Shown here: in pieces, positions 3,309-64,000 of the stretch | How positions within the stretch are numbered: position 1 is the stretch's first letter | Layout: every line of letters starts with the position of its first letter | Assembly (NCBI GenBank): GCA_964494475.1 | Contig: CAZBRS010000018.1 | Span: forward strand, 26,058-90,057 | Source: an uncultured Myxococcales bacterium | Lineage (GTDB): Bacteria; Myxococcota_A; UBA9042; CAZBRS01 | Direction of reading: 5' to 3' | DNA: 64,000 bases | Made by a program: the position numbers and the translations under genes | Notes under the pieces: model-generated | Databases searched by the model: none | What the model was told of the DNA's origin: nothing | The model's input: the letters and a program-made list of their open reading frames with translations, nothing else

Positions 3309-3932
3309 ATGCGCGTTCCGCTCGTCTTCCACGTCGACGAGGTGCTGCTCCCGCACAGCAGCACATCGCTGAAGCTCCGTGACGCCCGCCGTGGCATCCT
3401 CGACTACGTCGCCCAGTCCGAGGACGGCACGGTCTTCCTGACCGATCTCGAGGGCAAGGCCGGCACGCTCTCGCGCATCGTGCGCCTGCAGCCGCAGGGC
3501 GAAGAGGGCGTGTACGTGGGCAGCGTGCTCGGGATCGAGCGCGGGCTGCTGACGCGCCGCTTCGTGTCCGACGAGTACCGCATCGAGTTCGGCGACATCC
3601 AGACGTTCCCGGAGCCCTCCGAGGAGGACCGGGTGGCGGCGGCCGATTTCCTGCGTTGGCTGGACCCCGCGTTGCTGCAGCTGCCCGACGGGCTGGCCGA
3701 GATCGGCCTGGCGGCGCTGCGCCTGCGCGACGTGACCGAGCCCGTGGCCTACCTGTACCGCGTGGCGTCGCTCTTCCTGCGCTCGTCGCCCGCGCGCAAG
3801 GAGTTCCTGCTGCTCACCGACGTGGGCGAGCAGGTGGGGTACCTGCTGCAGGTGATCCGGCGCGCGTGCCTGACCGGCGAGCTGTCCGGATGGACCCCGA
3901 AGCCCGTGGGCGCAGAGCGCGTCCCCCACTGA
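3309..3932 (+). CDS. Hypothetical protein, Lon N-terminal (PUA-like) domain-like
   Basis: MRVPLVFHVDEVLLP...GTLSRIV...GIERG layout loosely resembles the LON substrate-binding domain. Start chosen at the internal ATG downstream of the promoter candidate. Confidence 0.45.
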   Translation: MRVPLVFHVDEVLLPHSSTSLKLRDARRGILDYVAQSEDGTVFLTDLEGKAGTLSRIVRLQPQGEEGVYVGSVLGIERGLLTRRFVSDEYRIEFGDIQTFPEPSEEDRVAAADFLRWLDPALLQLPDGLAEIGLAALRLRDVTEPVAYLYRVASLFLRSSPARKEFLLLTDVGEQVGYLLQVIRRACLTGELSGWTPKPVGAERVPH

Positions 3933-14732: not shown

Positions 14733-15881
14733 ATGACCGATCGCGTGGGGATCTGCGCCGTCGCCCAGACGACGTACGTTCGTGACCGCTCGGATCAGCG
14801 CTTCCAGGGGATGGCGCTGGAGGTGGTCGGCGAGCTGCGCCGCCAGACCGGCCTCGGCTTCGAGCCGGGCCGGGGCATCGACGCCACCATCAGCGTGTCC
14901 GACGACCTGTTCGACGCCCGCACCATCTCGGACAACGCCATGACCGATGTGCTGGGCGCGCACCTCGGGTGCGAGGAGAAGGTGGCCCAGGAGGGGCTGC
15001 AGGCGCTGTACTACGGCCTGGCCATGATCCGCTCGGGCCACGCCGACGTGGTGCTGGTGGTCGGGCACTGCAAGGAGTCGCAGGGCGAGAGCCGCAACCA
15101 GGTGACCCACCTGGCCTTCGACCCGTTCTTCACGCGGCCCGTGGGGCTCGACTTCCAGGCCGCGGCCGCGCTGCAGGCGCAGGCCTACCAGGCCGCGGCG
15201 GGCCTCACCGAGCGGCACCTGGCCGAGATCGTCGTGCGCGCCCGCGCGGCCGGCGCCGCCAACCCGCACACGCCTGAGATCACCGCCGTCACCGCCGACG
15301 AGGTGCTGGCGTCGCCCATGCTGGCCGATCCGATCCGCCAGGCGCACGCCTGGCCGGTCTCCGACGGGGCCGTGGGGTTGATCCTGGCCTCCGAGGAGCG
15401 CGCGCGTGCTTTGACGGGAACGCCCGTGTGGCTCGAGGGGGTGGGCTGCTGCCTCGACACCTTCTTCCTCGGTGACCGTGACCTCACGGGCAACTTCGCG
15501 CTGAAGAAGGCCGCCGCGCGCGCCTACGAGCGGGCGGGCGTGGCCGACCCCCGGACCGCCTTCGACGTGGTCGAGGTATCCGACGCCTACGCCTACCAGC
15601 AGCCGCTGTGGCTCGAAGGTCTCGGCCTCTGCGACCCCGGGCGGGGAGCGCGCTTCCTGGACGGTGGGGGCGCCGAGCGCGCGAACGTGAACCGCTCGGG
15701 GGGGCTCCTGGCCGGCAACCCGCTGATCCTCGGGGGGTTGGTGCGCGCCGTCGAGGCCACGCTGCAGCTCACGGGGCGGGCGGGCACCCGCCAGGTGCCG
15801 AGCGCCCGGCGGGCGTTGGCTCAGGGCGCCATGGGGCCCGCGGGGCAGTTCCACTCCGTCGCCGTGCTCGCCAGGGATTGA
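14733..15881 (+). CDS. Thiolase-like (SCP-x/lipid-transfer type) protein
   Basis: Thiolase-fold layout with C-terminal NRSGGLLAGNPLILGG... motif. Confidence 0.75.
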   Translation: MTDRVGICAVAQTTYVRDRSDQRFQGMALEVVGELRRQTGLGFEPGRGIDATISVSDDLFDARTISDNAMTDVLGAHLGCEEKVAQEGLQALYYGLAMIRSGHADVVLVVGHCKESQGESRNQVTHLAFDPFFTRPVGLDFQAAAALQAQAYQAAAGLTERHLAEIVVRARAAGAANPHTPEITAVTADEVLASPMLADPIRQAHAWPVSDGAVGLILASEERARALTGTPVWLEGVGCCLDTFFLGDRDLTGNFALKKAAARAYERAGVADPRTAFDVVEVSDAYAYQQPLWLEGLGLCDPGRGARFLDGGGAERANVNRSGGLLAGNPLILGGLVRAVEATLQLTGRAGTRQVPSARRALAQGAMGPAGQFHSVAVLARD

Positions 15882-42250: not shown

Positions 42251-42326
42251 TGGTGGAGATGAAGGGATTCGAACCCTCGGCCTCTGCCTTGCGAAGGCAG
42301 CGCTCTCCCAACTGAGCTACATCCCC
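42251..42326 (-). tRNA. tRNA-Ala (anticodon CGC), CCA encoded
   Basis: Minus strand GGGGATGTAGCTCAGTTGGGAGAGCGCTGCCTTCGCAAGGCAGAGGCCGAGGGTTCGAATCCCTTCATCTCCACCA. Cloverleaf folds, G3:U70 present, anticodon loop TTCGCAA. Confidence 0.95.
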
Positions 42327-42421: not shown

Positions 42422-42997
42422 TCAGCGCCCCAGGTCGTTGACCCAGCGCTGCACGGTCGAGGGAAACGCCGCTGCGCGTTCGGTCAGGGTCTCTCGGTTC
42501 AGGTTTTCGAGGTTCGGCTCGCCGAACGGCTCGCGTTCGTGCTGCAGGCGGCGCAGGTACGCCAGGTCGAGCAGGGCCTTCTCGGGGGTGGCCAGCAGTC
42601 CGCTTGGGGTCGCCTCGAAGCCGGTGTAGAGGCGGGGCGCGATGCGGTGGAACTCGAGCTCGCCCAGGCCGGTCGTGACGCGGCCCGGGCGCCCGAGCGT
42701 GACGCAGGTCACGACCGCGGGGGCCTGGTCCAGCACGCCGTGCAGGAACAGGGCGTGCTCGAGGGAGATGTAGGCGGGGCGGAGGGCGCACGCTGCAGCC
42801 TCCAGGGACGGCGGGCGCAGGCCGTTGGCGTACAGCTCGGGGCCCACCCGCAGGAGCAACCTGCGCGCCAGCAGGCGCTGGGCGGCCTTGCGCGCGGCGT
42901 CTCGCTCCAGGTGGCCGAGCTTCATGAGGTCGGCCAGGTGGAAGAAGGGCCGACCCTCGTTCAGGACTCGCACCCAGTCACCGAGCGAGGCGCTCAC
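42422..42997 (-). CDS. AbiEi-family antitoxin-like protein
   Basis: GTG start overlapping the upstream stop (GTGA). LGDWVRVLNEGRPFFHLADLMKL...YISLEHALFLHGV. Confidence 0.7.
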   Translation of the reverse strand: MSASLGDWVRVLNEGRPFFHLADLMKLGHLERDAARKAAQRLLARRLLLRVGPELYANGLRPPSLEAAACALRPAYISLEHALFLHGVLDQAPAVVTCVTLGRPGRVTTGLGELEFHRIAPRLYTGFEATPSGLLATPEKALLDLAYLRRLQHEREPFGEPNLENLNRETLTERAAAFPSTVQRWVNDLGR

Positions 42998-43809
42998 CGG
43001 AGCACCTCGTCGAGGACTCTGCGCGTCGCGGCGCGCACGGTCTGGTAGCCGTCGGTTTCGAGCAGTCGACGCGTCGGCCCGGGAAGGAAGCGTCCCAGCT
43101 CGTCGACGAGATCGTGACCGTCCAGTTCGGTGAGCCGGCACCGCAGGGACTCCAGGGGGGCCGCGGTTCCGTAGTCGGCGAACTTCTGGTGGGCCAGTCC
43201 GACGTCGATCGGGACGTGCAGGATGTCGGCCAGGAACCACACGTCGAAGAGGTCGCGGGCTTTCAGGTAGGGTCGCTGCGCCAGCGCGTTCACCTTGTCG
43301 GCGAGCAGCTCGCGGGGAGAACAGGCCACGACCAGCGGCCGGGGCGTGTAGGGCTGCACCTCCCGACAGAGCGGCGACGGGCGGGCATCGTGGGCCGGGT
43401 ACCGGCCTGCTTCGAGCTTGACGCGCAGCACTTCGCGGGCGCCCAGACGCTGATAGCGGAACCACCAGGTGCGCAGGCGGCCCCCGGCGCCCGGTTTGGG
43501 CGCATCGAGGCGCGCGTCACCGGGGCCGAGCACGCTTGCCAGGCGACCGGCGGCGCTGCGTGCCGCGTCGGCCATCAACCGATCGAGCTCGTCGTCGGAG
43601 AGGTGGTTCGTGACCAGGTCGAGATCTTCCGAGTAGCGATAGCCGCCGTGCACCAGCCGCACGCACGTGCCCCCCTGGAAGGCAAGCCGTAGCGAGAGCG
43701 GCGCAGCGTACAACGCGTCGAGCAGGAAGAACTGGATGGCCTCCATGGCGACGATGCGGGCAGAGACGCCTTCTGCGGTCGCGCGCGCTTCGATCTCGTG
43801 CCACGTCAT
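42994..43809 (-). CDS. AbiEii/AbiGii nucleotidyltransferase toxin (DUF1814)
   Basis: LRLAFQGGTCVRLVHGGYRYSEDLDLV, later KARDLFDVWFL. Confidence 0.8.
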   Translation of the reverse strand: MTWHEIEARATAEGVSARIVAMEAIQFFLLDALYAAPLSLRLAFQGGTCVRLVHGGYRYSEDLDLVTNHLSDDELDRLMADAARSAAGRLASVLGPGDARLDAPKPGAGGRLRTWWFRYQRLGAREVLRVKLEAGRYPAHDARPSPLCREVQPYTPRPLVVACSPRELLADKVNALAQRPYLKARDLFDVWFLADILHVPIDVGLAHQKFADYGTAAPLESLRCRLTELDGHDLVDELGRFLPGPTRRLLETDGYQTVRAATRRVLDEVLR

Positions 43810-43968
43810 GAAGGACCTACTTTCGTTGCGAGAATAAGACAGATGCGTCCCAAATGCAAAACGAACTGTCGCGTCGGAATGGTCGGAGGGCAGGCGCAAG
43901 GCCTGCCCCTACGGTCTTGCAGGGGCGCTGGAAACGCGCTAGACGTCGTGCCGAACGCCGGGGGACGC

Positions 43969-55599: not shown

Positions 55600-56634
55600 A
55601 TGGAGATCGCGGTCGTCGGAGTCCCCCAGAGCGGCAAGACCCTGGCCATCCAGGCCATGGGCGGCCACCACGACGAGGCGGCGGGCAAGAAGCGCGACGA
55701 CCGGCTGGTGGTGCCCGTGCCCGACGCACGCATCGACCACCTGTCGTCCATCTACAAGCCGAAGAAGACCACCTACGCCCGCATCCAGTTCCGCGAGGCC
55801 GCCGGCCTCGGCCAGGAGCACCAGAAGGGCACGGCCGACTTCCGCAACCAGGTGCAGGGCGCCGACGGCCTGCTGGTCGTGGTGCGCGACTTCGACGCGC
55901 TGGGCGAGGCCCCCGACCCCGCCCGCGAGGCCACCAAGCTGCTCGAAGAGCTGCAGACCCTCGACTACCTGCTCGCGTCGGGCCGCCAGGAGCGCCTCGA
56001 CGAGGCCAAGAAGAAGGGCAAGAAGCCCGAGCCCGGCGAAGAAGAAGCCCTCAAGGAGGTGCTCGACATCCTCGAGGGCGGCCAGCCCCTGGGCGATCGC
56101 CTGACCCCCGAGGCCCTCAGCCACCTGTCCGGCTTCGGCTTCCTGACGCGCAAGCGCATCGTCGTGCTCCTGAACACCGACGAGGGCCGCGTGCACGACC
56201 CCGTGCCCGCCACTGCGCCCTTCGACCGCTACCCCACCTTCCGCGCCAGCCTGCCCATCGAGGCCGAGATCGCCGAGCTCGAGACGGCCGAGGAGCGCAC
56301 GGCCTTCCTGGCCGATCTGGGCATCGGCGAGCCCGTGCTCCACAAGGTCATCCAGTCGTTCTACAAGGCCATGGACCTCATCCCCTTCTTCACCGTGGGC
56401 GAAGACGAGGTGCGCGCCTGGACCATCACGCGGGGCACCCACGCCAAGGACGCCGCGGGCGAGATCCACACCGATCTCAGCCGCGGCTTCATCGCCGCCG
56501 AGGTGCTGGCCTACGCCGAGTTCGTCTCGCTGGGAGGATTCAAGGAGGCCAAGGCCAAGGGCCGCGTGCGCGTCGAGAGCCGCGACTACGTGGTGCAGGA
56601 TGGGGATATCCTCAACATACGGTTCAACGTGTAG
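55600..56634 (+). CDS. ychF: YchF/OLA1-like P-loop NTPase (divergent P-loop, TGS-like C-terminus)
   Basis: VVGVPQSGKT. C-terminal FFTVGEDEVRAWTI..G..A..AAGEIHTDLSRGFI.AEV...DGDILNIRFNV, as in YchF. Confidence 0.7.
   Translation: MEIAVVGVPQSGKTLAIQAMGGHHDEAAGKKRDDRLVVPVPDARIDHLSSIYKPKKTTYARIQFREAAGLGQEHQKGTADFRNQVQGADGLLVVVRDFDALGEAPDPAREATKLLEELQTLDYLLASGRQERLDEAKKKGKKPEPGEEEALKEVLDILEGGQPLGDRLTPEALSHLSGFGFLTRKRIVVLLNTDEGRVHDPVPATAPFDRYPTFRASLPIEAEIAELETAEERTAFLADLGIGEPVLHKVIQSFYKAMDLIPFFTVGEDEVRAWTITRGTHAKDAAGEIHTDLSRGFIAAEVLAYAEFVSLGGFKEAKAKGRVRVESRDYVVQDGDILNIRFNV
56620..56634 (+). repeat. Core repeat copy 0 (last codons and stop of ychF)
   Basis: CGGTTCAACGTGTAG. Confidence 0.9.
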
Positions 56635-56640
56635 TAACGC

Positions 56641-56669
56641 TTGACGTTAATACCGGACCGCGTTATTAT
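56641..56669 (+). promoter_or_regulatory. Sigma-70-like promoter giving a leaderless higB mRNA
   Basis: TTGACG-N17-TATTAT, then 6 nt, then the ATG at 56676. Confidence 0.5.
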
Positions 56670-56675
56670 TCTCTC

Positions 56676-56966
56676 ATGATCCGCTCGTTCCGCTGCGCCG
56701 AGACCGAGAAGCTGTTCCGCCGGGAGCCGACGCGGAAGATTCCTCCCGACGTGCAGCGGGTGGCGTTGCGGAAGTTGTTGCACGTGCACGCGGCGGTTCG
56801 GCTCGACGAGTTGCGGGTACCGCCGGGCAACCGTCTCGAAGCCCTGAAGGGCGACCGCGCCGGGCAGCACAGCGTGCGGATCAACGACCAGTGGCGTGTG
56901 TGCTTCGTGTGGCGCGATGGCGGCGCCGAGGACGTGGAGATCGTGGACTACCACAAGGGCAGGTGA
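56676..56966 (+). CDS. higB: HigB-type toxin (plasmid-maintenance killer protein family)
   Basis: MIRSFRCAETEKLF...ALKGDRAGQHSVRINDQWRVCFVW...VEIVDYH. Confidence 0.85.
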   Translation: MIRSFRCAETEKLFRREPTRKIPPDVQRVALRKLLHVHAAVRLDELRVPPGNRLEALKGDRAGQHSVRINDQWRVCFVWRDGGAEDVEIVDYHKGR

Positions 56967-56969
56967 GCC

Positions 56970-57275
56970 ATGAGCGACAAGATGGCCCCCATCCACCCGG
57001 GCGAGATCCTGGCCGAGGACTTCCTCGCGGGGCTGGGTATCACGCAGTACCGGCTGGCCAAGGGCATCGGAGTGCCGCCCCGGCGCATCAACGAGATCGT
57101 GAAAGGGATCCGCGGCATCTCGGCCGACACGGCCCTGCGCTTCGCCCGCTTCTTCGGCACGAGCCCGGAGTTCTGGGTGAACCTGCAGTCGCACTACGAC
57201 CTGGAGGTCCAGCGAGACCACGTCGGCGCCCTGATCGACGCCCAGGTTGAGGTATTTCACCACAAGGTCGCGTGA
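56970..57275 (+). CDS. higA: HigA-type HTH antitoxin
   Basis: IHPGEILAEDFL...GITQYRLAKGIGVPPRRINEIVKGIRGISADTALRFARFFGTSPEFWVNLQ. Confidence 0.85.
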   Translation: MSDKMAPIHPGEILAEDFLAGLGITQYRLAKGIGVPPRRINEIVKGIRGISADTALRFARFFGTSPEFWVNLQSHYDLEVQRDHVGALIDAQVEVFHHKVA

Positions 57276-57295
57276 GGACGGATCCGGGGCGTTCT

Positions 57296-57368
57296 GGTGA
57301 CAAGCTGGGTACAACGCCCCTCATCCCCGCACGGGGTGCGGTTGCTCATACGTCGGTTCAACGTGTAG
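57296..57368 (+). repeat. 73-nt junction block, copy 1, ending in the ychF core
   Basis: GGTGACAAGCTGGGTACAACGCCCCTCATCCCCGCACGGGGTGCGGTTGCTCATACGTCGGTTCAACGTGTAG. Confidence 0.85.
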
Positions 57369-57412
57369 CCATCCCGATGGACCATTCGGCCCCGGGTTTA
57401 CGCGGCAGGCCG

Positions 57413-57440
57413 TTGCGTTTGTTTCGTTTGCGCCTACAAT
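57413..57440 (+). promoter_or_regulatory. Sigma-70-like promoter candidate (TTGCGT-N16-TACAAT)
   Basis: 17 nt upstream of the ATG at 57458, with RBS GGAGGTG between them. Confidence 0.4.
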
Positions 57441-57457
57441 GGGTGTGGAGGTGAACC

Positions 57458-57913
57458 ATGACCACTCCCGCCATCCGGGTCCCGAACGAGCACGAAGCCG
57501 AAGAGGCGCAGTCCGCCGTCGAAGTCCTGCGTGCTTTCGTACTCGGCCGGGGGACGCCGCACGTGCGCCTTCTGCCGGAGGATGGGCAGCACGAAATTGA
57601 CGTGCAGATTCCGGCCGAGGCGTTCCAGCTTCTCGTGCGAATCCTCACCCTAATGGCGAATGGCCACGCGGTGTCGGTGTTGGCCCTCCAAACCGAGTTG
57701 ACGACGCAGCAGGCTGCCGAGTTGCTCAACGTCTCCCGCCCCCACGTCGTGAAGCTCCTCTCGGAGGGCGTTATCCCGTTCCGCAAGGTCGGCACGCATC
57801 GCCGGGTGGCACTCGTCGATCTGCTGGCCCACAAGGACCGGGAGGAGCGTCGGACCAAGCAGGCGCTGGACGAACTTGCCGAAGAAGCCCAGAAGCTCGA
57901 CCTCGGGTACTGA
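57458..57913 (+). CDS. Excisionase/MerR-type HTH protein, probable antitoxin of the PIN gene
   Basis: LTTQQAAELLNVSRPHVVKLLSEGVIPFRKVGTHRRV. Confidence 0.65.
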   Translation: MTTPAIRVPNEHEAEEAQSAVEVLRAFVLGRGTPHVRLLPEDGQHEIDVQIPAEAFQLLVRILTLMANGHAVSVLALQTELTTQQAAELLNVSRPHVVKLLSEGVIPFRKVGTHRRVALVDLLAHKDREERRTKQALDELAEEAQKLDLGY

Positions 57914-57920
57914 GCCGCCC

Positions 57921-58493
57921 ATGTCGAAGCTCATCGTCGTCTACGACGCTTGCGTCCTGTATCCCGCGCCGTTGCGGGATTTGTTGATGCGCGTGGCTGG
58001 CGCCGGGCTCGTCCAGGCGAAGTGGAGCGAGGAGATCCTCGAAGAGGTCTTCTCGAACATCCTGCGACAGAGACCCGACCTCGACGCGAGCCGCCTTGCC
58101 CGAACCAGGGAGTTGATGAAGAGCGCCGTGCCGGACTGTCTGGTCGAGGGCTACGAAGGGCTCGCGGACATGGCAGAACTACCCGACCCCGGGGATCGCC
58201 ACGTGCTGGCCGCTGCAGTGCGCGGTGGTGCCCAGGCCATCGTCACGAGCAACCTGAAGGACTTCCCCCGCGCCGCGCTGGAGCCCCTGGGCATCGAGGC
58301 GATTCACCCCGACCGTTTTGTCCTCAACCTGCTCGATCTCCGGGAAGGTGTCGTGCTCCAGTGCCTGCACGAGCAGCGCGCTGCCCTCCGGCATCCGCCG
58401 GTCACGCTGTCCGACCTGATCGCGACGCTCGAGGCGTGTGGCCTGGTCCAGGCCATGGCAGAGGTCCGGATGCTGCTTGGCTCAGGCGCCTGA
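57921..58493 (+). CDS. PIN-domain nuclease
   Basis: VVYDACVLYPAPLRDLLM...DRHVLAAAV...IVTSNLKDF. Confidence 0.75.
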   Translation: MSKLIVVYDACVLYPAPLRDLLMRVAGAGLVQAKWSEEILEEVFSNILRQRPDLDASRLARTRELMKSAVPDCLVEGYEGLADMAELPDPGDRHVLAAAVRGGAQAIVTSNLKDFPRAALEPLGIEAIHPDRFVLNLLDLREGVVLQCLHEQRAALRHPPVTLSDLIATLEACGLVQAMAEVRMLLGSGA

Positions 58494-58497
58494 CACC

Positions 58498-58893
58498 ATG
58501 GACACCATCCTTCGTTGCCACGAGTGCGGGGCCGACATGGTGCGAGCCGTGCGCCCCGACACCGTCGAGTACAAGGGACGCTCGACCGCCATCGAGCAGC
58601 CTGGGTGGTACTGCAAGGGCTGCAAGGAGGTCGTGCTCAGCGGCGACGACATGGCGGTCACCGAGGCCGCGTTCGTCCACCTGAAGGCCGAGGTCGATGG
58701 CATCCTCACGCCCGCCGAGGTCCAGCGCATCCGCAAGAAGCTGGGCCTATCCCAGCGCAAGGCGGGCGCCCTGCTCGGAGGCGGCCCCCGGTCGTTCCAG
58801 AAGTACGAAAGCGGCACCGACTGGGTGACGAAGCCCATGGCCAACCTGCTGCGCCTGCTCGACCGGCACCCGACCATGATCAAGGAACTGTAG
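58498..58893 (+). CDS. MqsA-family antitoxin (Zn-ribbon + HTH), no MqsR partner
   Basis: CHECG...YKGRSTAIEQPGWYCKGCKEVV, then LTPAEVQRIRKKLGLSQRKAGALLGGGPRSFQKYESG. Confidence 0.8.
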   Translation: MDTILRCHECGADMVRAVRPDTVEYKGRSTAIEQPGWYCKGCKEVVLSGDDMAVTEAAFVHLKAEVDGILTPAEVQRIRKKLGLSQRKAGALLGGGPRSFQKYESGTDWVTKPMANLLRLLDRHPTMIKEL

Positions 58894-58927
58894 GCGGCGG
58901 TCGCCGGGCGCACCAAGGGGGGACAAC

Positions 58928-59350
58928 ATGAGGTCGTTCGTGTTCCTGCTGTTCCCGATCTTCGTCATCGCTGCGGCCTGCTCGTCGGAAGACGGCTCCT
59001 CTGGAGCCGACGCCGAAGTCCGAGGCGACGGAATCCCGGTGGATGGTTGTTGCGGCGCTGGTGACACGACGGCCGACGAGACGCCGAGCGCAGGATGCAG
59101 CGGCCTCGGCCAGGGCGAGTGCGAGGCTTCCGACGAGTGCGAGCCGTACCTCGCGTGGCCCGAGGCGGTGGCGTGTGCGTCGGCCGAGCCCTCGGAGTCG
59201 CCGTCGTTCCTGGGCTGCGGTCCTATGCAGGCATGTTCCCAGACATGGACGTGGGCAGCCCCCGAGGCGCAACCCGACGACTGGTACCAGTTCATCAACG
59301 GTTGCCTTCCAGACGGATGGGTCCGGTCGAACCTGTCCCCTTGCGAGTAG
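58928..59350 (+). CDS. Small Cys-rich lipoprotein
   Basis: MRSFVFLLFPIFVIAAAC lipobox, acidic Cys-rich mature part. Confidence 0.55.
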   Translation: MRSFVFLLFPIFVIAAACSSEDGSSGADAEVRGDGIPVDGCCGAGDTTADETPSAGCSGLGQGECEASDECEPYLAWPEAVACASAEPSESPSFLGCGPMQACSQTWTWAAPEAQPDDWYQFINGCLPDGWVRSNLSPCE

Positions 59351-59370
59351 GGCAGCGGCCGGGACGAACC

Positions 59371-59442
59371 GGCGACAACTCGGAGACAACGCCCGCAACC
59401 CATCGGATTTATTGGGCGCCGAACCTTCGGTTCAACGTGTAG
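59371..59442 (+). repeat. Junction block, copy 2 (mosaic), ending in the ychF core
   Basis: The first 25 nt are 20/25 identical to copy 3. The middle CATCGGATT matches the second repeat family. It ends CGGTTCAACGTGTAG. Confidence 0.8.
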
Positions 59443-59570
59443 CTCGCGCGACTCCTCCCGGGAGATCAGGGACTCCGCCGAGGCTCGACCCGAACTTGAC
59501 CGCCGCCTCTGAATTGTCCTGTTGACCGCCGCCATAAATAAGGACATATTGAGCACAGGGGAGGTCGTGG

Positions 59571-59843
59571 ATGCCCTTTGACCTGGACGTGCCGTCGGGG
59601 CTGAAGAAGGCGGGCTGGAAGGTGAAGATTTTCGACAAGGAAGGGCTGGAGCCGCCCCACGTGACCATCCTCCGAGGACCCGACAAGTGGAGGTACGGGC
59701 TTCGCGAGCAACGGCTGTTGGTGCCACCCGGAGGCTCGCCCAGGGACATCCCGGCAGGCGTCTGGGCGGTCATCGAGGGCAACCTCGACCAACTCAATGC
59801 GGCGTGGGATCGGATGTTCCCCACGAACCCCGTTGGAGGCTGA
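59571..59843 (+). CDS. Hypothetical small protein (possibly DUF4160-like)
   Basis: KIFDKEGLEPPHVTIL resembles the PPH-H-V motif of DUF4160. Promoter-like TTGACC-N17-CATATT at 59522-59550. Confidence 0.4.
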   Translation: MPFDLDVPSGLKKAGWKVKIFDKEGLEPPHVTILRGPDKWRYGLREQRLLVPPGGSPRDIPAGVWAVIEGNLDQLNAAWDRMFPTNPVGG

Positions 59844-59844
59844 C

Positions 59845-60636
59845 ATGAGCAACGCCGTCTACGTGCTCGACGACCATCCCCGGAAGCGTGCCGGAAGCAA
59901 GCCGACGCAGCCCGTCTACCTTGATGACGAAGCCGACGTGCGCGATGTCGTGCGGTCGGGGAACGTTCGCGCCTTCTGGATCGCCAGCAACCAGGTCGCG
60001 GTAGGTTGGCTGGTGAAGGCGCTCGGCGAGAGCCCCCGTCGACGGTGGGGAGAGTTCGTGATGCTGAAGCCTGTCTCTCCGTCGATGGCGACGTTGCTCC
60101 AGGACCGATTCGACCGGGTGGTCCTGCCCCTGCAGCGGATACTGCCCCTCGACGAGATCCTCGCCGTCCACGACCGCGCCGACCGCGCCGACTTCTGCAT
60201 CAGCGGTTCGGTCGACCGCGAGTCCGAGACCGTGGTAATGGTCCTGGGCGACCTGTCGGTCCTCGCCGTACCCCTCACGGACTTCGCCCCCTACGCCGAC
60301 GGACCCGTGCCCGACTTCGACGCCTTCGAGATCACGGACCACGGCAGAACCCTGAAGTTCGGAGCCTACGAAGCCTCGGTAGACGCCGTGCTGTACGAAC
60401 GGGATCCGCGCTACCGACGCCGCCTGAAGAAGGCCCGCGCCGAGGAGGACCGGTCGTTCGGTGCCTCGCTCCGCCGCCTGCGGAAGCAGCGCAAGCTACG
60501 CCTCGAAGACTTCGGTGCCCTCGCCAAGACCGTGGCCCGCATCGAACGCGGCGACGTTACCAGCCCCAGGCGCACGACCTTGCAGGGTATCGCCGCGAGG
60601 CTCGGGGTCGAGCCCGACCAAATCCGCGACTTCTGA
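59845..60636 (+). CDS. Hypothetical protein with C-terminal XRE-type HTH
   Basis: ATG 1 nt after the upstream stop. C-terminal FGASLRRLRKQRKLRLEDFGALAKTVARIERGD. Confidence 0.5.
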   Translation: MSNAVYVLDDHPRKRAGSKPTQPVYLDDEADVRDVVRSGNVRAFWIASNQVAVGWLVKALGESPRRRWGEFVMLKPVSPSMATLLQDRFDRVVLPLQRILPLDEILAVHDRADRADFCISGSVDRESETVVMVLGDLSVLAVPLTDFAPYADGPVPDFDAFEITDHGRTLKFGAYEASVDAVLYERDPRYRRRLKKARAEEDRSFGASLRRLRKQRKLRLEDFGALAKTVARIERGDVTSPRRTTLQGIAARLGVEPDQIRDF

Positions 60637-60643
60637 CGTGTCC

Positions 60644-60702
60644 CTCGCATCGGATTCTCGACTGGGGTAAACTGCACTCGAATCTGTTGATCGGTCATCA
60701 TG
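60644..60702 (+). repeat. Leader repeat, copy a
   Basis: CTCGCATCGGATTCTCGACTGGGG...CGAATCTGTTGATCGGTCATCATG. The last 24 nt are identical to copy b. Confidence 0.85.
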
Positions 60703-61014
60703 GCTGTGCTGACGGACCATGCGGGTCTCGCGATTCGGCTGACGGACGAACGCCGAGCGCACATCCTCGAACATCCCGAGATGGTCGGGATGGAAGAGGC
60801 GCTCCTGCGCTGCCTGAGTGAGCCGGACCTCGTCACCGCATCTCGCGTCGATGCCGACGTGGCGATGTACTACCGCTTCCTGCCGACCACGCCGGTCGGC
60901 GCGAAGTTCGTGGTGGTGGTCGTGAAGACGACGCCAGACGATGCGTTTCTGGTAACGGCGTACCTGACCGACAAGGTCAAGACCGGGAGGGTGCTATGGA
61001 GCCGCGAGAGGTGA
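60700..61014 (+). CDS. Small toxin-like protein usually paired with DUF2283
   Basis: IRLTDERRAHILEHPEM...PDLV...FVVVVVK...AFLVTAYLTDKVKTG. A recognisable family, but its name is not certain. Confidence 0.5.
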   Translation: MAVLTDHAGLAIRLTDERRAHILEHPEMVGMEEALLRCLSEPDLVTASRVDADVAMYYRFLPTTPVGAKFVVVVVKTTPDDAFLVTAYLTDKVKTGRVLWSRER

Positions 61015-61217
61015 AGATCTGGTACGACCGCGAGGCGGACTACCTGGAAGTACTGTTCGACAACCGGGTGGGCTTCTACCGCGAAACGTCGAACGACCAC
61101 GTGATGGAGAAGGTCGACGACGAGGGACGCGTGCTGGGCTTCTCGGTGCAGAAGGTCAGCGCCCTCTCCAACCATCCGCTCTCCTTGCTTCTGCCTACTG
61201 TTGTACGCGCAGCATGA
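60996..61217 (+). CDS. DUF2283-domain protein
   Basis: IWYDREADYLEVLFD...VDDEGRVLGFSV. Overlaps the upstream gene by 19 nt. Confidence 0.7.
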   Translation: MEPREVKIWYDREADYLEVLFDNRVGFYRETSNDHVMEKVDDEGRVLGFSVQKVSALSNHPLSLLLPTVVRAA

Positions 61218-61266
61218 CGTTCGGGCTGGCCCCTCGCTTCGTGCGGGAACCAACCTGGGGCGAAAC

Positions 61267-61338
61267 GGTGACAAAACGGGGACAACGCCCCTCAACTCCG
61301 CACGGGGCGCGGGTGCATATACGTCGGTTCAACGTCTG
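61267..61338 (+). repeat. Junction block, copy 3, ending in a degenerate core
   Basis: 60/73 identical, ungapped, to copy 1. The core reads CGGTTCAACGTCTG. Confidence 0.85.
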
Positions 61339-61373
61339 CCGCGCCACCCTGTGAGGCGCTCCGAAGCCTCTCG

Positions 61374-61432
61374 CTCGCATTGGATTTTCTACTGCGGTAG
61401 GCTTCGCCCGAATCTGTTGATCGGTCATCATG
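61374..61432 (+). repeat. Leader repeat, copy b
   Basis: CTCGCATTGGATTTTCTACTGCGG...CGAATCTGTTGATCGGTCATCATG. Confidence 0.85.
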
Positions 61433-61455: not shown

Positions 61456-62187
61456 GTGACAACTCTCGAACGAGGCGTCCTTCTTGCCGCCTCGATGCTC
61501 CTCGCGTCCGCCTGCTCCGACGACCGACCCATCCCGACGGTCTACCCCCTGCCCGCGCCCTGGGCCGACGTCGACCTCGGCTACCTGCCCTTCGAGTACC
61601 TGCCCGACGGGTGCTCTCAGCGCGCCTCGTACCTGGGGATGGAGTTGGCCGTTCGGGGCGTCGTGACGATCGCCGTCGACGCCGAGACGTGTGACTACGG
61701 GATGGGCCTGCGCGGCCCGTTTGGCGAGCCCTGGCGGCACCACGCGGTGCCGGTGGTGCTGGTCGACGGAGAGCCGGCGCTGCTCGACCCCCTCGCGAGC
61801 CCAGAGCTCCTGACGATCGACGCGTGGCTGGCCGGCTTGACGGACGATCCCGTCCGGGTCTTCCTGACGTCGACGGCCTACCCGACCTCGCATGGGCACG
61901 AGACGACGTGCGGCTCCGTCGAGGCGACCGAGTCGCCCCTGCCCACGACCGTGGCCGGGATGACGCCCTGGCTGCTCGAGAACGTGATGAGCGACTGCGC
62001 CGCGCTGCGGCAGTTCCATCGCGACGCGCCCGTCCACGACCCGGCGCGCGAAGAGCGCCTGATCGTCCGCACGACCGAGCTCGTGCAGCAGATCGAGGCC
62101 CTGGGCCTGTTGGACGAGAGCATGAACCCCGGGCTGATGGACCAGTTGGCCGCGGCGCCCTGGTGCCCCGAGCCCGTACCGAAGTAG
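61456..62187 (+). CDS. Lipoprotein resembling protein-glutamine glutaminase (papain-like fold)
   Basis: GTG start after GGAGG. Lipobox LLASAC. DGCSQRASYLGMEL...PWRHHAVPVVLVDG...LLDP matches the C..RA / W.YHVAP / DPS pattern of protein glutaminases as I recall it. Confidence 0.55.
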   Translation: MTTLERGVLLAASMLLASACSDDRPIPTVYPLPAPWADVDLGYLPFEYLPDGCSQRASYLGMELAVRGVVTIAVDAETCDYGMGLRGPFGEPWRHHAVPVVLVDGEPALLDPLASPELLTIDAWLAGLTDDPVRVFLTSTAYPTSHGHETTCGSVEATESPLPTTVAGMTPWLLENVMSDCAALRQFHRDAPVHDPAREERLIVRTTELVQQIEALGLLDESMNPGLMDQLAAAPWCPEPVPK

Positions 62188-62278
62188 GGTCGCAGAGCGG
62201 CTCGACAACCCGCGACACCTCGGCTACCTTTCTGACCGACCGTTGTGGCGACCCCGAACCCCTTGCGTGAGGCGACCC

Positions 62279-64000
62279 ATGCTGCGATCCCGTTTCCCCC
62301 TCGTGATGACGATCCTGCTGGCCCTGGTGGCCCTGTTCGCGCTCGCCGCGTGCGGCGGCGGAGGAGGCGGCTCCGACGCCTCTTCCGACGTGCCCGCCGA
62401 CATCGCCGGGCCCGACGCGGCCGCCGACGTCGTCGCGCCTGACGCGCCGGCCGACGTGCCGGCCCCGGACGACGAGGCCGAGGTGTCGACCCCGGACGCC
62501 GCCGACGTACCCGATGCCACCGACGTGCCCGACGCCGCCGACGTGGTGGCGCCCTTCGAGCTGGTCCTGAAGGCTCCCCTGCCGACCCCCGCCGACCCGC
62601 TGAAGGACACCGGCGTCGCCTCTTGCTCGGTCTACCAGCAGGAGCGCTGCGAGGGCGGCGCGCGCCAGGTCTGCAACGTCTACGATCCGGGCGCCCAGGC
62701 CTTCGTGGCCGAGCCCGACCCCATGTTCGAGCGCGTGCTGCTCTTCGAGCGCTGGCGCGACTTGTACGGCAAGCCCGACGGCATGACCTCCGAGCGCAGC
62801 TTCACCGAGGCCACGCCTCCGGGCACCCCCGAGGCCGAGTGGGCGGCGGCCGAGCGCTTCCGGTCCCACGACGGCATGGGCGACTCGGGCATCTGGACCG
62901 GCTGGACGGTCATCGGCGACATCCTGCGCTACTCGCAGACCGGCACCGAGGCCGACTACGTGCGCATGGAGCAGGGCGTGCGCACGCTGCTCACCATGTA
63001 CGACGTCTCGGGCGTGCCCGGCTATTTCGTGCGCTACTTCTTCCTGCTGATGCCGCCCGGCGCGCCCAACTCGCCCGATCACGTGTTCCGCTACGAAGGT
63101 CAGATCACGCTCGATCACCACAACCGCGATATCGACCCGGCAGCCCTGGCCAATCTGGCGCCCGTGTACCGCGACGGCATCACCGACGCCGACGGCAAGG
63201 TCTGGAAGGGCCGGCCCATGTGGGAAGGGCGTCCCTCGATCGACCAGAACACCGGGCCCATGAACGCGCTGCCGATGGCGTTCCCCATGCTGCGCGACGA
63301 CACGCTGAAGCAGCGCATCGTCCACCACCTCACGTGCTACCTGAAGCGCCTGCAGCGCATCGAGATCATCAACCTGCAGCAGAACCCCGACCTGCTCGCG
63401 TCCCTCACGCAGTACTTCAACGCCGGCGAGCTCATGCTCGACCCCGGCGACGTCGATCTCACCAAGCTGGACCGCATCGTGGCCTACGTGCAACGCCAGA
63501 TCAACACGACCAACGAGGCCACCTTCGATCGCTCGTGCCCCGCGAACGTGCAGCTCGTGCCCTGGCGCGTCATCGACGCCACCAGCCCGTCGTTCCTCGG
63601 CGAGTTCCTGAAGCTCACTCAAGACATGGACACCAACGGCAAGGGCGCGAACCAGATCGACCACTACTACTTCCCGAACCTGCGCGGCGGCGACACCGTC
63701 CACCTGATGCACCTGGCGGCCATGGCGTGGTGGTTCACGGGCGAGGAGCAGTACCGCTCGTTCCTCGTCGACGAGCTGCTCGGCAACCTGAACGGCCTGG
63801 CCACCATCTTCACGACCGGCGCCTTCGACCAGGACAAGTTCTGCAGTCACTTCTTCGGCGACCAGCTCACCTACGGCTCGTGGTGGGTGCTGCTCTCCAT
63901 GCTGGGCGACTCGCCGCTCAAGACCGAGCTCCAGCAGGCCTTCCACGACGAGATGTGGGAGAAGCTCCTGAAGCAGAAGGGCAACGCCGACTTCTACCTG
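62279..64000 (+). CDS. Lipoprotein, function unknown, 3'-partial
   Basis: Not in the ORF track because it has no stop in the window. Hand translation from ATG 62279 is open to nt 64000. MLRSRFPLVMTILLALVALFALAAC lipobox plus an acidic Pro-rich linker. Confidence 0.65.
   Translation, partial: MLRSRFPLVMTILLALVALFALAACGGGGGGSDASSDVPADIAGPDAAADVVAPDAPADVPAPDDEAEVSTPDAADVPDATDVPDAADVVAPFELVLKAPLPTPADPLKDTGVASCSVYQQERCEGGARQVCNVYDPGAQAFVAEPDPMFERVLLFERWRDLYGKPDGMTSERSFTEATPPGTPEAEWAAAERFRSHDGMGDSGIWTGWTVIGDILRYSQTGTEADYVRMEQGVRTLLTMYDVSGVPGYFVRYFFLLMPPGAPNSPDHVFRYEGQITLDHHNRDIDPAALANLAPVYRDGITDADGKVWKGRPMWEGRPSIDQNTGPMNALPMAFPMLRDDTLKQRIVHHLTCYLKRLQRIEIINLQQNPDLLASLTQYFNAGELMLDPGDVDLTKLDRIVAYVQRQINTTNEATFDRSCPANVQLVPWRVIDATSPSFLGEFLKLTQDMDTNGKGANQIDHYYFPNLRGGDTVHLMHLAAMAWWFTGEEQYRSFLVDELLGNLNGLATIFTTGAFDQDKFCSHFFGDQLTYGSWWVLLSMLGDSPLKTELQQAFHDEMWEKLLKQKGNADFYL

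Follow-up and report, generated by a model that had tools for sequence, protein, structure and literature searches.

We examined a 64-kb window (70% G+C) of contig CAZBRS010000018.1, from an uncultured Myxococcales bacterium, in which the 3' end of the near-universal gene ychF is repeated several times downstream of the gene and separates small co-oriented cassettes, almost all of toxin-antitoxin (TA) type. The last 15 nucleotides (nt) of ychF (CGGTTCAACGTGTAG, comprising its last codons and stop; hereafter the core) recur exactly twice further downstream, and a variant copy, CGGTTCAACGTCTGC, follows at the end of the array (Table 1). Allowing up to three mismatches, the core motif had 9 matches in the window for 1.08 expected, a number reached in none of 100 shuffles. 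Each downstream core copy forms the end of a conserved ~85-nt block. The blocks of copies 1 and 3 are identical at 60 of 73 positions without gaps, their similarity continuing to 97 nt at 77%, and the block of copy 2 has its 5' part, GACAAnnnnGnnACAACGCCC, in common with the others. A scan of the window with a profile of 13 blocks (filters off) retrieved blocks only at 57283-57369, 59359-59443 and 61254-61338, plus an additional partial match at the ychF end. Because the profile found only the array blocks and this partial match, the block is not a dispersed repeat within the window. In GTDB representative genomes, pattern scans revealed only two genuine loci; the first of these scans gave seven matches, approximately the chance expectation, and only one of them, L003, was genuine (contigs and loci outside the window are designated by L numbers). 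An Rfam scan of the window at the gathering threshold recognised a single tRNA and gave no match in the array.

An initial annotation, made from the sequence alone, had listed the exact and altered core copies and the similarity of the blocks, and both were borne out by the sequence and the alignments. It had also divided the region into three cassettes, each with its own promoter-like element. The genes that it named (HigB/HigA, HTH/PIN, MqsA and a Cys-rich lipoprotein) are all there, except that its DUF2283 pair comes down to one DUF2283 open reading frame (ORF). The count of cassettes changes to four, block-delimited or fused. Positions 60640-61338 match, with 89% identity across 699 nt, the whole of the cassette that comes first after ychF in the relative L032, where its core and left end are intact. 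The third interval therefore consists of two fused cassettes, 3a and 3b, the first of which has lost its block; the 13-block profile had no match near 60600-60650, at the end of cassette 3a. A promoter scan flagged promoter-like sites only in cassettes 1 and 3, which bears out a promoter-like element of their own for these cassettes but not for cassette 2. The G+C content at third codon positions (GC3) of the cassette genes is 0.80-0.92, compared with 0.95 for ychF and its neighbours, which is consistent with a foreign origin. Since the plasmid database returned matches only for the generic HTH_17-PIN pair, the HTH_17 protein of cassette 2, although of the excisionase family, appears more likely to be the PIN antitoxin than a dedicated excisionase.

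Table 1 Coordinates of ychF, the downstream cassette array and the adjoining distal segment
Feature	Position	Strand	Annotation
ychF	55600-56634	+	344 aa; YchF-GTPase_C, PF06071, E = 2e-34
core copy 0, attL-like	56620-56634	+	CGGTTCA + ACGTGTAG; encodes YchF R-F-N-V-stop; right 8 nt attributed to the HigBA cassette
cassette 1	56635-57368	+	higB/higA module, block and core copy 1
promoter-like site, cassette 1	56641-56669		promoter scan
higB	56676-56966	+	HigB-like_toxin
higA	56970-57275	+	HTH_3
attachment block 1	57283-57353		profile match
core copy 1	57354-57368		exact CGGTTCAACGTGTAG
cassette 2	57369-59442	+	HTH_17, PIN_3, MqsA, Cys-rich lipoprotein, block and core copy 2
HTH_17 gene, cassette 2	57458-57913	+	excisionase-family
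PIN_3 gene, cassette 2	57921-58493	+
MqsA gene, cassette 2	58498-58893	+
Cys-rich lipoprotein gene, cassette 2	58928-59350	+
type-B block, cassette 2	59359-59427		profile match
core copy 2	59428-59442		exact CGGTTCAACGTGTAG
cassette 3a	59443-60639	+	orf90 and orf263; no 3' block of its own; fused to cassette 3b
promoter-like site, cassette 3a	59522-59550		promoter scan
orf90	59571-59843	+	weak DUF4160
orf263	59845-60636	+	C-terminal HTH_31/HTH_3
cassette 3b	60640-61339	+	leader, orf104, DUF2283 gene, type-A block and core copy 3
leader, cassette 3b	60641-60702
orf104	60700-61014	+	weak PBECR2 nuclease-like
DUF2283 gene	60996-61217	+
type-A block, cassette 3b	61254-61324		profile match
core copy 3	61325-61339		CGGTTCAACGTCTGC, degenerate stop (TGC)
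distal segment	61340-62278	+	repeat of the cassette-3b leader and Gln_deamidase_2-like lipoprotein gene; no terminal block
leader repeat, distal segment	61371-61432		84% identity to 60641-60702
Gln_deamidase_2-like lipoprotein gene	61495-62187	+

Arrays and junctions in related bacteria

Contigs of relatives were recovered by exact-protein look-ups and one metagenome pattern scan. They share the glutaredoxin-ychF neighbourhood of the window, with ychF at 87-92% nucleotide identity, and carry different cassettes in different orders; among GTDB species representatives, the closest YchF proteins, from Myxococcales metagenome-assembled genomes (MAGs), reach only 38-39% identity. Behind ychF we found AbiEi-AbiEii and then HigBA in L025, L028 and ERZ1426840; a TacA-like gene with a GNAT toxin and then AbiE-like genes, orf113 and MqsA in L031; and the orf104 cassette, MqsR-MqsA and a lipoprotein cassette in L032. 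A lipoprotein cassette precedes HigBA in L026 and L027, and L030 carries DUF4258 with a Zn-ribbon gene, a lipoprotein cassette and a decayed HigB-HigA. The HigBA cassette, at 90-92% identity, occupies varying positions in L025, L026, L027, L028 and L030, and the lipoprotein and block part of cassette 2 recurs in L026, L027 and L030, followed there by HigBA instead of cassette 3. The sole candidate for an empty site is that of the distant relative L001, in which ychF ends with CGATTCAACGTCTGA, followed by a hairpin. In L025, a degenerate block (3645-3712; profile E = 5e-4) comes after an 83-aa ORF behind HigBA and is probably the eroded distal end of that array.

Homology between the arrays starts or stops precisely at the core, and where it starts it does so with the core's first base: in blastn comparisons, position 56620 of the window aligned with L025:2640, L026:1896 and L028:1710. 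The HigBA cassette always begins with A(C/T)GTG(T/C)AG-TAACGCTTG(A/G)CG irrespective of its left neighbour, which in L025, L026 and L030 is the block of another cassette rather than ychF, and the left end of the AbiE cassette is always ACGTCTGA-CCGCCCTC. Since these left ends stay constant whatever lies to their left, the bases to the right of CGGTTCA (AYGT-N-stop) belong to the right-hand cassette. With the right half of the core travelling in this way, nearly every cassette brings its own Val-stop ending (GTG TAG, GTC TGA or GTT TGA) and can complete ychF. CGGTTCA-AYGT-N-stop was found, with minor variants, at all 22 junctions examined, and in frame at most of them. The variants are CTGTTCA in L039 and L048, CGATTCA at the empty site of L001 and ACAT in place of AYGT in L044. 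Degenerate stops occur at three junctions, all internal or distal and none at a ychF junction: TGC (window copy 3) and TGG (L031_b), each at the last block of its own array, and CAG at L030_b, ahead of the decayed higB. At the junctions, ychF and the cassettes have only 11-15 nt of sequence in common.

Assembly breaks within samples fall at the same places. In Logan k=31 contigs of several runs, some contigs end at 56649 or start at 56620, and others end at 61294 or start at 61265; the break bases are the first base of the core (56620) and the first base of block 3 (61265). This pattern, which is suggestive only, is what a de Bruijn graph would be expected to give if the core or the start of block 3 had two left contexts per sample. 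Other Logan/JGI contigs break in or beside block 1: L014 and L016 end at 57311, L018 starts at 57169, L020 and L022 start at 57191 and L024 starts at 57374. Together with a C/T single-nucleotide polymorphism (SNP) at 57294, inside block 1, these breaks suggest that strains also differ inside the attachment block itself and not only at the core.

The attachment block and a linked integrase family

In an alignment of 13 blocks, drawn from 9 loci, the positions without variation make up two direct repeats, GGnnACAA, 12 nt apart, and, 35-36 nt beyond these, the core, C(G/T)GTTCAAYGT. The interval is filled by sequence that differs between subtypes A, B and C. The 7-bp CGGTTCA is flanked by an imperfect 8-bp inverted repeat, with 4-7 of 8 positions matching at cassette junctions of the window and close relatives, 1-4 of 8 at ychF junctions and 2-3 of 8 at L030_b and at the junctions of the integrase elements L039, L044 and L048. 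From this layout we infer the core site of a tyrosine recombinase, its overlap region being 7 bp long, albeit of weak symmetry. Single-strand DNA folds of four blocks, on both strands, were no better than those of shuffled sequences (z from -1.8 to +1.1), and RNAalifold found no consensus pair in the 13 aligned blocks. Because they show neither a single-strand fold nor a consensus structure, the blocks are not integron attC sites; their conservation in sequence and spacing would be consistent with recognition as duplex DNA. By eye, we saw no 28-bp dif-like XerC/XerD site (11-6-11) and no inverted pairs of the pdif type, and the sites described here are direct copies, unlike the inverted pairs of pdif modules.

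The window contains no detectable integrase or resolvase: tblastn searches with XerD, IntI1, the L003 integrase fragment, eight members of the family described below and a resolvase gave no match at E < 0.1, and a Pfam scan of integrase-sized ORFs found no integrase. Block and core are also present in a Myxococcales MAG (L003/L035), where an element of 4.96 kb extends from the stop region of ychF (CGGTTCAATGTTTGA) to the block plus CGGTTCAACGTCTGA. This element encodes a truncated tyrosine recombinase, and in L035, as in L034, the integrase gene is followed by the leader GTTGCGTTTGTTTCG and the HTH_17 gene known from cassette 2 of the window. When the integrase fragment was used as query in a word-indexed search for homologs, only two matches were obtained; an exhaustive HMMER search with the fuller homolog P0002 gave 11 representatives below 1e-30. 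Full-length members of the family have ~366-390 aa and consist of ~85 N-terminal residues, without match to known arm-binding Pfam families, followed by a SAM-like domain and then by the catalytic domain, in which R, K, HxxR, H and Y are conserved. They score far under the XerC, XerD and IntI cutoffs, the linked integrases reaching 23.5 and 31.4 bits with the integron-integrase model TIGR02249 (cutoff 265). The phage database held no relatives of the integrase.

Integrases of this family lie just upstream of block and core at five independent Myxococcota loci, once directly at ychF (L035). At the other four (L039, with integrase P0004; L044-L046, with P0007; L048, a Nannocystaceae MAG; and L049, Myxococcota KLAP118), the integrase gene is 0.5-3.5 kb upstream of block and core on the same strand. 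The block was found at none of seven unrelated integrase loci from the same scan, and at L043 (integrase P0006) neither block nor ychF was recognisable.

A small ORF (95-108 aa) precedes every full-length integrase gene of the family (L039 102-413, L043 865-1176, L044 395-682, L042 8254-8580), its stop overlapping the integrase start. A scan of the copy of L039 alone matched neither Pfam nor NCBIfam families; the product may be a partner protein, perhaps a directionality factor. L039 (1-60) and L041 (1-140) carry the same element (orf103, integrase P0004, AbiE) and diverge directly to the left of AGTTCGAGGTC, which loosely resembles the core and may be the left end of the element in two different contexts.

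Flanks of the array and other features of the window

In the window and in all related contigs, the upstream neighbours of ychF are genes for a glutaredoxin and a GH106 protein. The distal segment, whose GC3 of 0.95 is that of the core genes, probably represents either the native flank or the eroded end of the array. A degenerate terminal block suspected by eye at 62188-62290 was not supported by the profile scan. Beyond the distal segment, the right flank, beginning with a 742-aa lipoprotein gene at 62279, is conserved and aligns with L025 and L030 from ~62420 on. The genes between the array and this lipoprotein gene vary by strain (HAD/bestrophin, enoyl-CoA hydratase-like or Gln_deamidase_2-like). 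The 62-nt leader ends in ATG, one copy standing before orf104 and the other before the Gln_deamidase_2-like gene, where the ATG opens an ORF of nine codons only; a third version (74%) directly follows the ychF core in L032. The shared leader may act as a promoter/operator, or it may allow cassettes and flank to recombine by homology. The N-terminal part of the large lipoprotein, rich in Ala, Asp and Pro and the least conserved among relatives, contains a 27-nt periodic repeat (62385-62543) of four copies with 67-81% identity to the reference copy.

Elsewhere in the window, a lone AbiEii toxin gene (42994-43899, minus strand; PF08843, E = 1e-27) lies beside tRNA-Ala(CGC) (42251-42326, minus strand) and may represent another small island or TA insertion. 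ARAGORN also called a 96-nt tRNA-Ala(GGC) at 15774-15869 that had no Rfam tRNA match at the gathering threshold; the call is probably spurious, or else the tRNA is unusual or interrupted.

Proposed mechanism, alternatives and known systems

We interpret 56620-61339, with a probability of roughly 70%, as the outcome of a process in which site-specific recombination has added cassettes without integrase in tandem, and shuffled them, at an attachment site (attB) formed by the 3' end of ychF, the enzyme probably being a member of the ~380-aa tyrosine integrase family acting in trans. The last 15 nt of ychF would be the chromosomal attachment site, into whose codons and stop cassettes of 0.7-2 kb, devoid of a recombinase of their own, would have been inserted successively. 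Each cassette would start with the right half of the core (A-Y-G-T-N-stop), giving ychF its Val and stop when in first position, continue with a body that usually has its own promoter followed by a TA or other small module, and end in the ~85-nt block with its two GGnnACAA repeats, 35-36-nt spacer and imperfect 8-bp inverted repeat around CGGTTCA. The latter would be the strand-exchange (overlap) region, and the direct repeats could serve as arm-type or accessory sites on double-stranded DNA. In this genome the integrase would be encoded outside the window, and in related Myxococcota it would be carried by 'driver' elements with the same block and core. Internal junctions would regenerate block and core, allowing excision, presumably as circular intermediates, re-insertion at ychF and reordering; such mobility may be ongoing or past.

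The initial annotation had hesitated between serial integration into the 3' end of ychF and a cassette-accretion process distinct from classical integrons. These are essentially one mechanism, which the arrays of relatives and the break points at the core support, and its remark that no integrase is present and its suggestion of something other than a classical integron agree with the searches and folds reported above. Its description of the repeats as displaced ychF ends applies in part, not all of them being native, as the right half of the core, stop included, is that of the right-hand cassette. Of the two outcomes that it had named as contradicting its inference, repeats scattered irrespective of ychF are not seen within the window, and relatives do not all have one set of cassettes in one order; an empty site was encountered only in the distant L001.

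Several points weigh against tandem accretion by such an integrase. The window has no recombinase, so that mobility in this organism is putative and the array could be a fossil, and we found no integrase in the arrays of close relatives, nor did we see circular junctions or empty sites in them. The link between integrase and block is one of co-occurrence and amounts to guilt by association; in addition, the left neighbour in L044-46 is a resolvase gene rather than ychF, and L049 has no ychF within 10 kb upstream of its integrase. The inverted repeat around the core is weak. Coexisting strains or SNPs (e.g., an ATA/ATC codon at 56619) could give the same contig breaks, and since cassette 3a and the distal segment lack blocks, the array has also been shaped by deletion or by homologous recombination of the leaders that its parts share.

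A fossil array, consisting of decayed islands whose integrases were deleted and whose differences between strains stem from homologous recombination or deletion between repeated blocks and leaders, would account for the absence of integrases from close relatives' arrays, the truncated integrase of L035, the lost block of cassette 3a and the degenerate distal stops (TGC, TGG and CAG), and both the 62-nt leader (60641-60702 and 61371-61432) and the block subtypes would be substrates for such exchanges. We nevertheless consider it unlikely, given that junctions with only 11-15 nt in common show core-exact break points in several independent arrangements. Stop and core remain intact at most internal junctions, which suggests selection for insertion competence, and cassettes that are 90-92% identical sit at differing positions behind ychF genes that are 87-92% identical, which indicates recent movement.

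The blocks might instead be attC sites of a classical integron remnant, that is, a cluster of attC sites lacking integron-integrases (CALIN), with an IntI encoded elsewhere recombining them in folded single-stranded form. The array resembles sedentary chromosomal integrons in its small co-oriented cassettes, of which many are TA modules that have promoters of their own; the position of the recombination site, at the 3' end of each cassette, and the derivation of the first bases of each cassette from the core also fit, and the core holds GTTCAAC, whose reverse complement GTTGAAC agrees with GTTRRRY. However, the blocks fold no better than shuffled sequences and yield no consensus pairs, they are conserved in primary sequence and spacing and not in R''/L''-L'/R' complementarity, the linked integrases stay at 23-31 bits for a TIGR02249 cutoff of 265, IntI1 has no tblastn counterpart in the window, and the target is a protein-coding 3' end instead of an attI beside intI, all of which makes this explanation very improbable. 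Even less credence can be given to a generic intergenic repeat without a role in mobility (of the repetitive extragenic palindrome, miniature inverted-repeat transposable element or terminator kind) or to Xer/dif-type modules. The repeats are indeed short, GC-rich and intergenic, and their minimum free energy folds contain local stems (CCCCGC/GCGGGG) and GGGGCG...CGCCCC complementarity, but the block is confined to the array within 64 kb, always stands in one orientation at the cassette 3' end with an in-frame Val-stop next to it, co-occurs with one integrase family and has no terminator-like T runs; inspection by eye likewise revealed neither dif-like sites nor inverted pairs.

Beyond tandem accretion as such, the locus could represent an independently evolved integron-like platform, in which the ychF stop would play the role of attI, minimal cassettes with their own promoters, mostly TA or abortive-infection modules, would carry a duplex block in place of attC, a single unlinked heterobivalent tyrosine integrase, sometimes borne by a 'driver' cassette, would insert, excise and reorder them, and every cassette would terminate ychF. 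We advance this idea tentatively, rating it somewhat below an even chance. If the cassettes are mobile, integron-style accretion would not be unique to IntI and attC; an ordinary tyrosine integrase and a target inside a coding gene would have given rise to it a separate time. Such a system would also be compact, with an 85-nt block and a 15-nt target in a near-universal gene, and could serve for site-specific insertion in GC-rich bacteria. The locus would be a hotspot for the exchange of TA and abortive-infection modules among uncultured Myxococcota, and ychF would join the conserved genes used as attB sites. In full-text literature searches we found no paper in which the 3' end of ychF is described as serving for attachment; a pneumococcal prophage inserts upstream of ychF, which is a different site (PMC6375853).

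The likeness to integrons extends to a fixed insertion point, co-oriented arrays, a 3' recombination site with the boundary inside the core, TA cassettes with their own promoters, cassettes without recombinase and content that varies between strains. Here, in contrast, there is no attC hairpin, no IntI and no attI beside an integrase gene (the gene upstream of ychF encodes a glutaredoxin), and the insertion point is a coding 3' end; the array lies outside the integron family. Composites of the staphylococcal cassette chromosome (SCC), such as SCCmec, ψSCC and the arginine catabolic mobile element (ACME), occupy the 3' end of rlmH-orfX, are moved by large serine recombinases (CcrAB/CcrC), span 3-60 kb and carry diverse cargo. 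Like the ychF cassettes, they have their specific insertion site in the final codons of a conserved housekeeping gene and restore its 3' end, stack in tandem with direct repeats of the integration site between elements, and include members without recombinase that rely on those of others. They differ in their serine recombinases and rlmH target, the present system having ychF and, as far as linkage tells, a tyrosine integrase, with cassettes of only 0.7-2 kb, almost all of TA type, and a one-sided ~85-nt block. Like heterobivalent integrases of the lambda Int type, the linked family has an extra ~85-aa N-terminus ahead of a SAM-like and R-K-HxxR-H-Y catalytic domain, and the block resembles their attachment sites in having direct repeats at a fixed distance from the core and a 7-bp candidate overlap; here, the N-terminus matches no known arm-binding Pfam family, the putative arm sites are on one side only and most elements lack an integrase.

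Beside integrons and SCC composites, the closest analogues include the accretion of cis-mobilizable elements (CIMEs) and tandem islands at gene 3' ends. Such integrase-less elements are flanked by att sites, are left or captured in tandem at the 3' end of a target gene with copies of the gene end at their junctions, and can be mobilised in cis or in trans by a related integrase. Their arrays consist of a few large islands, each usually with its own integrase or derived from one that had it, whereas the cassettes behind ychF are minimal, all end in the same kind of block, are able to terminate ychF and are freely reordered among strains. Systems of this kind include the ICESt1/ICESt3 family at fda and the Dehalococcoides ssrA islands (PMC5704250, PMC3146451). 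With its cassettes presumed mobile and its enzyme a candidate, the locus may be viewed as an integron-like cassette platform built from different parts.

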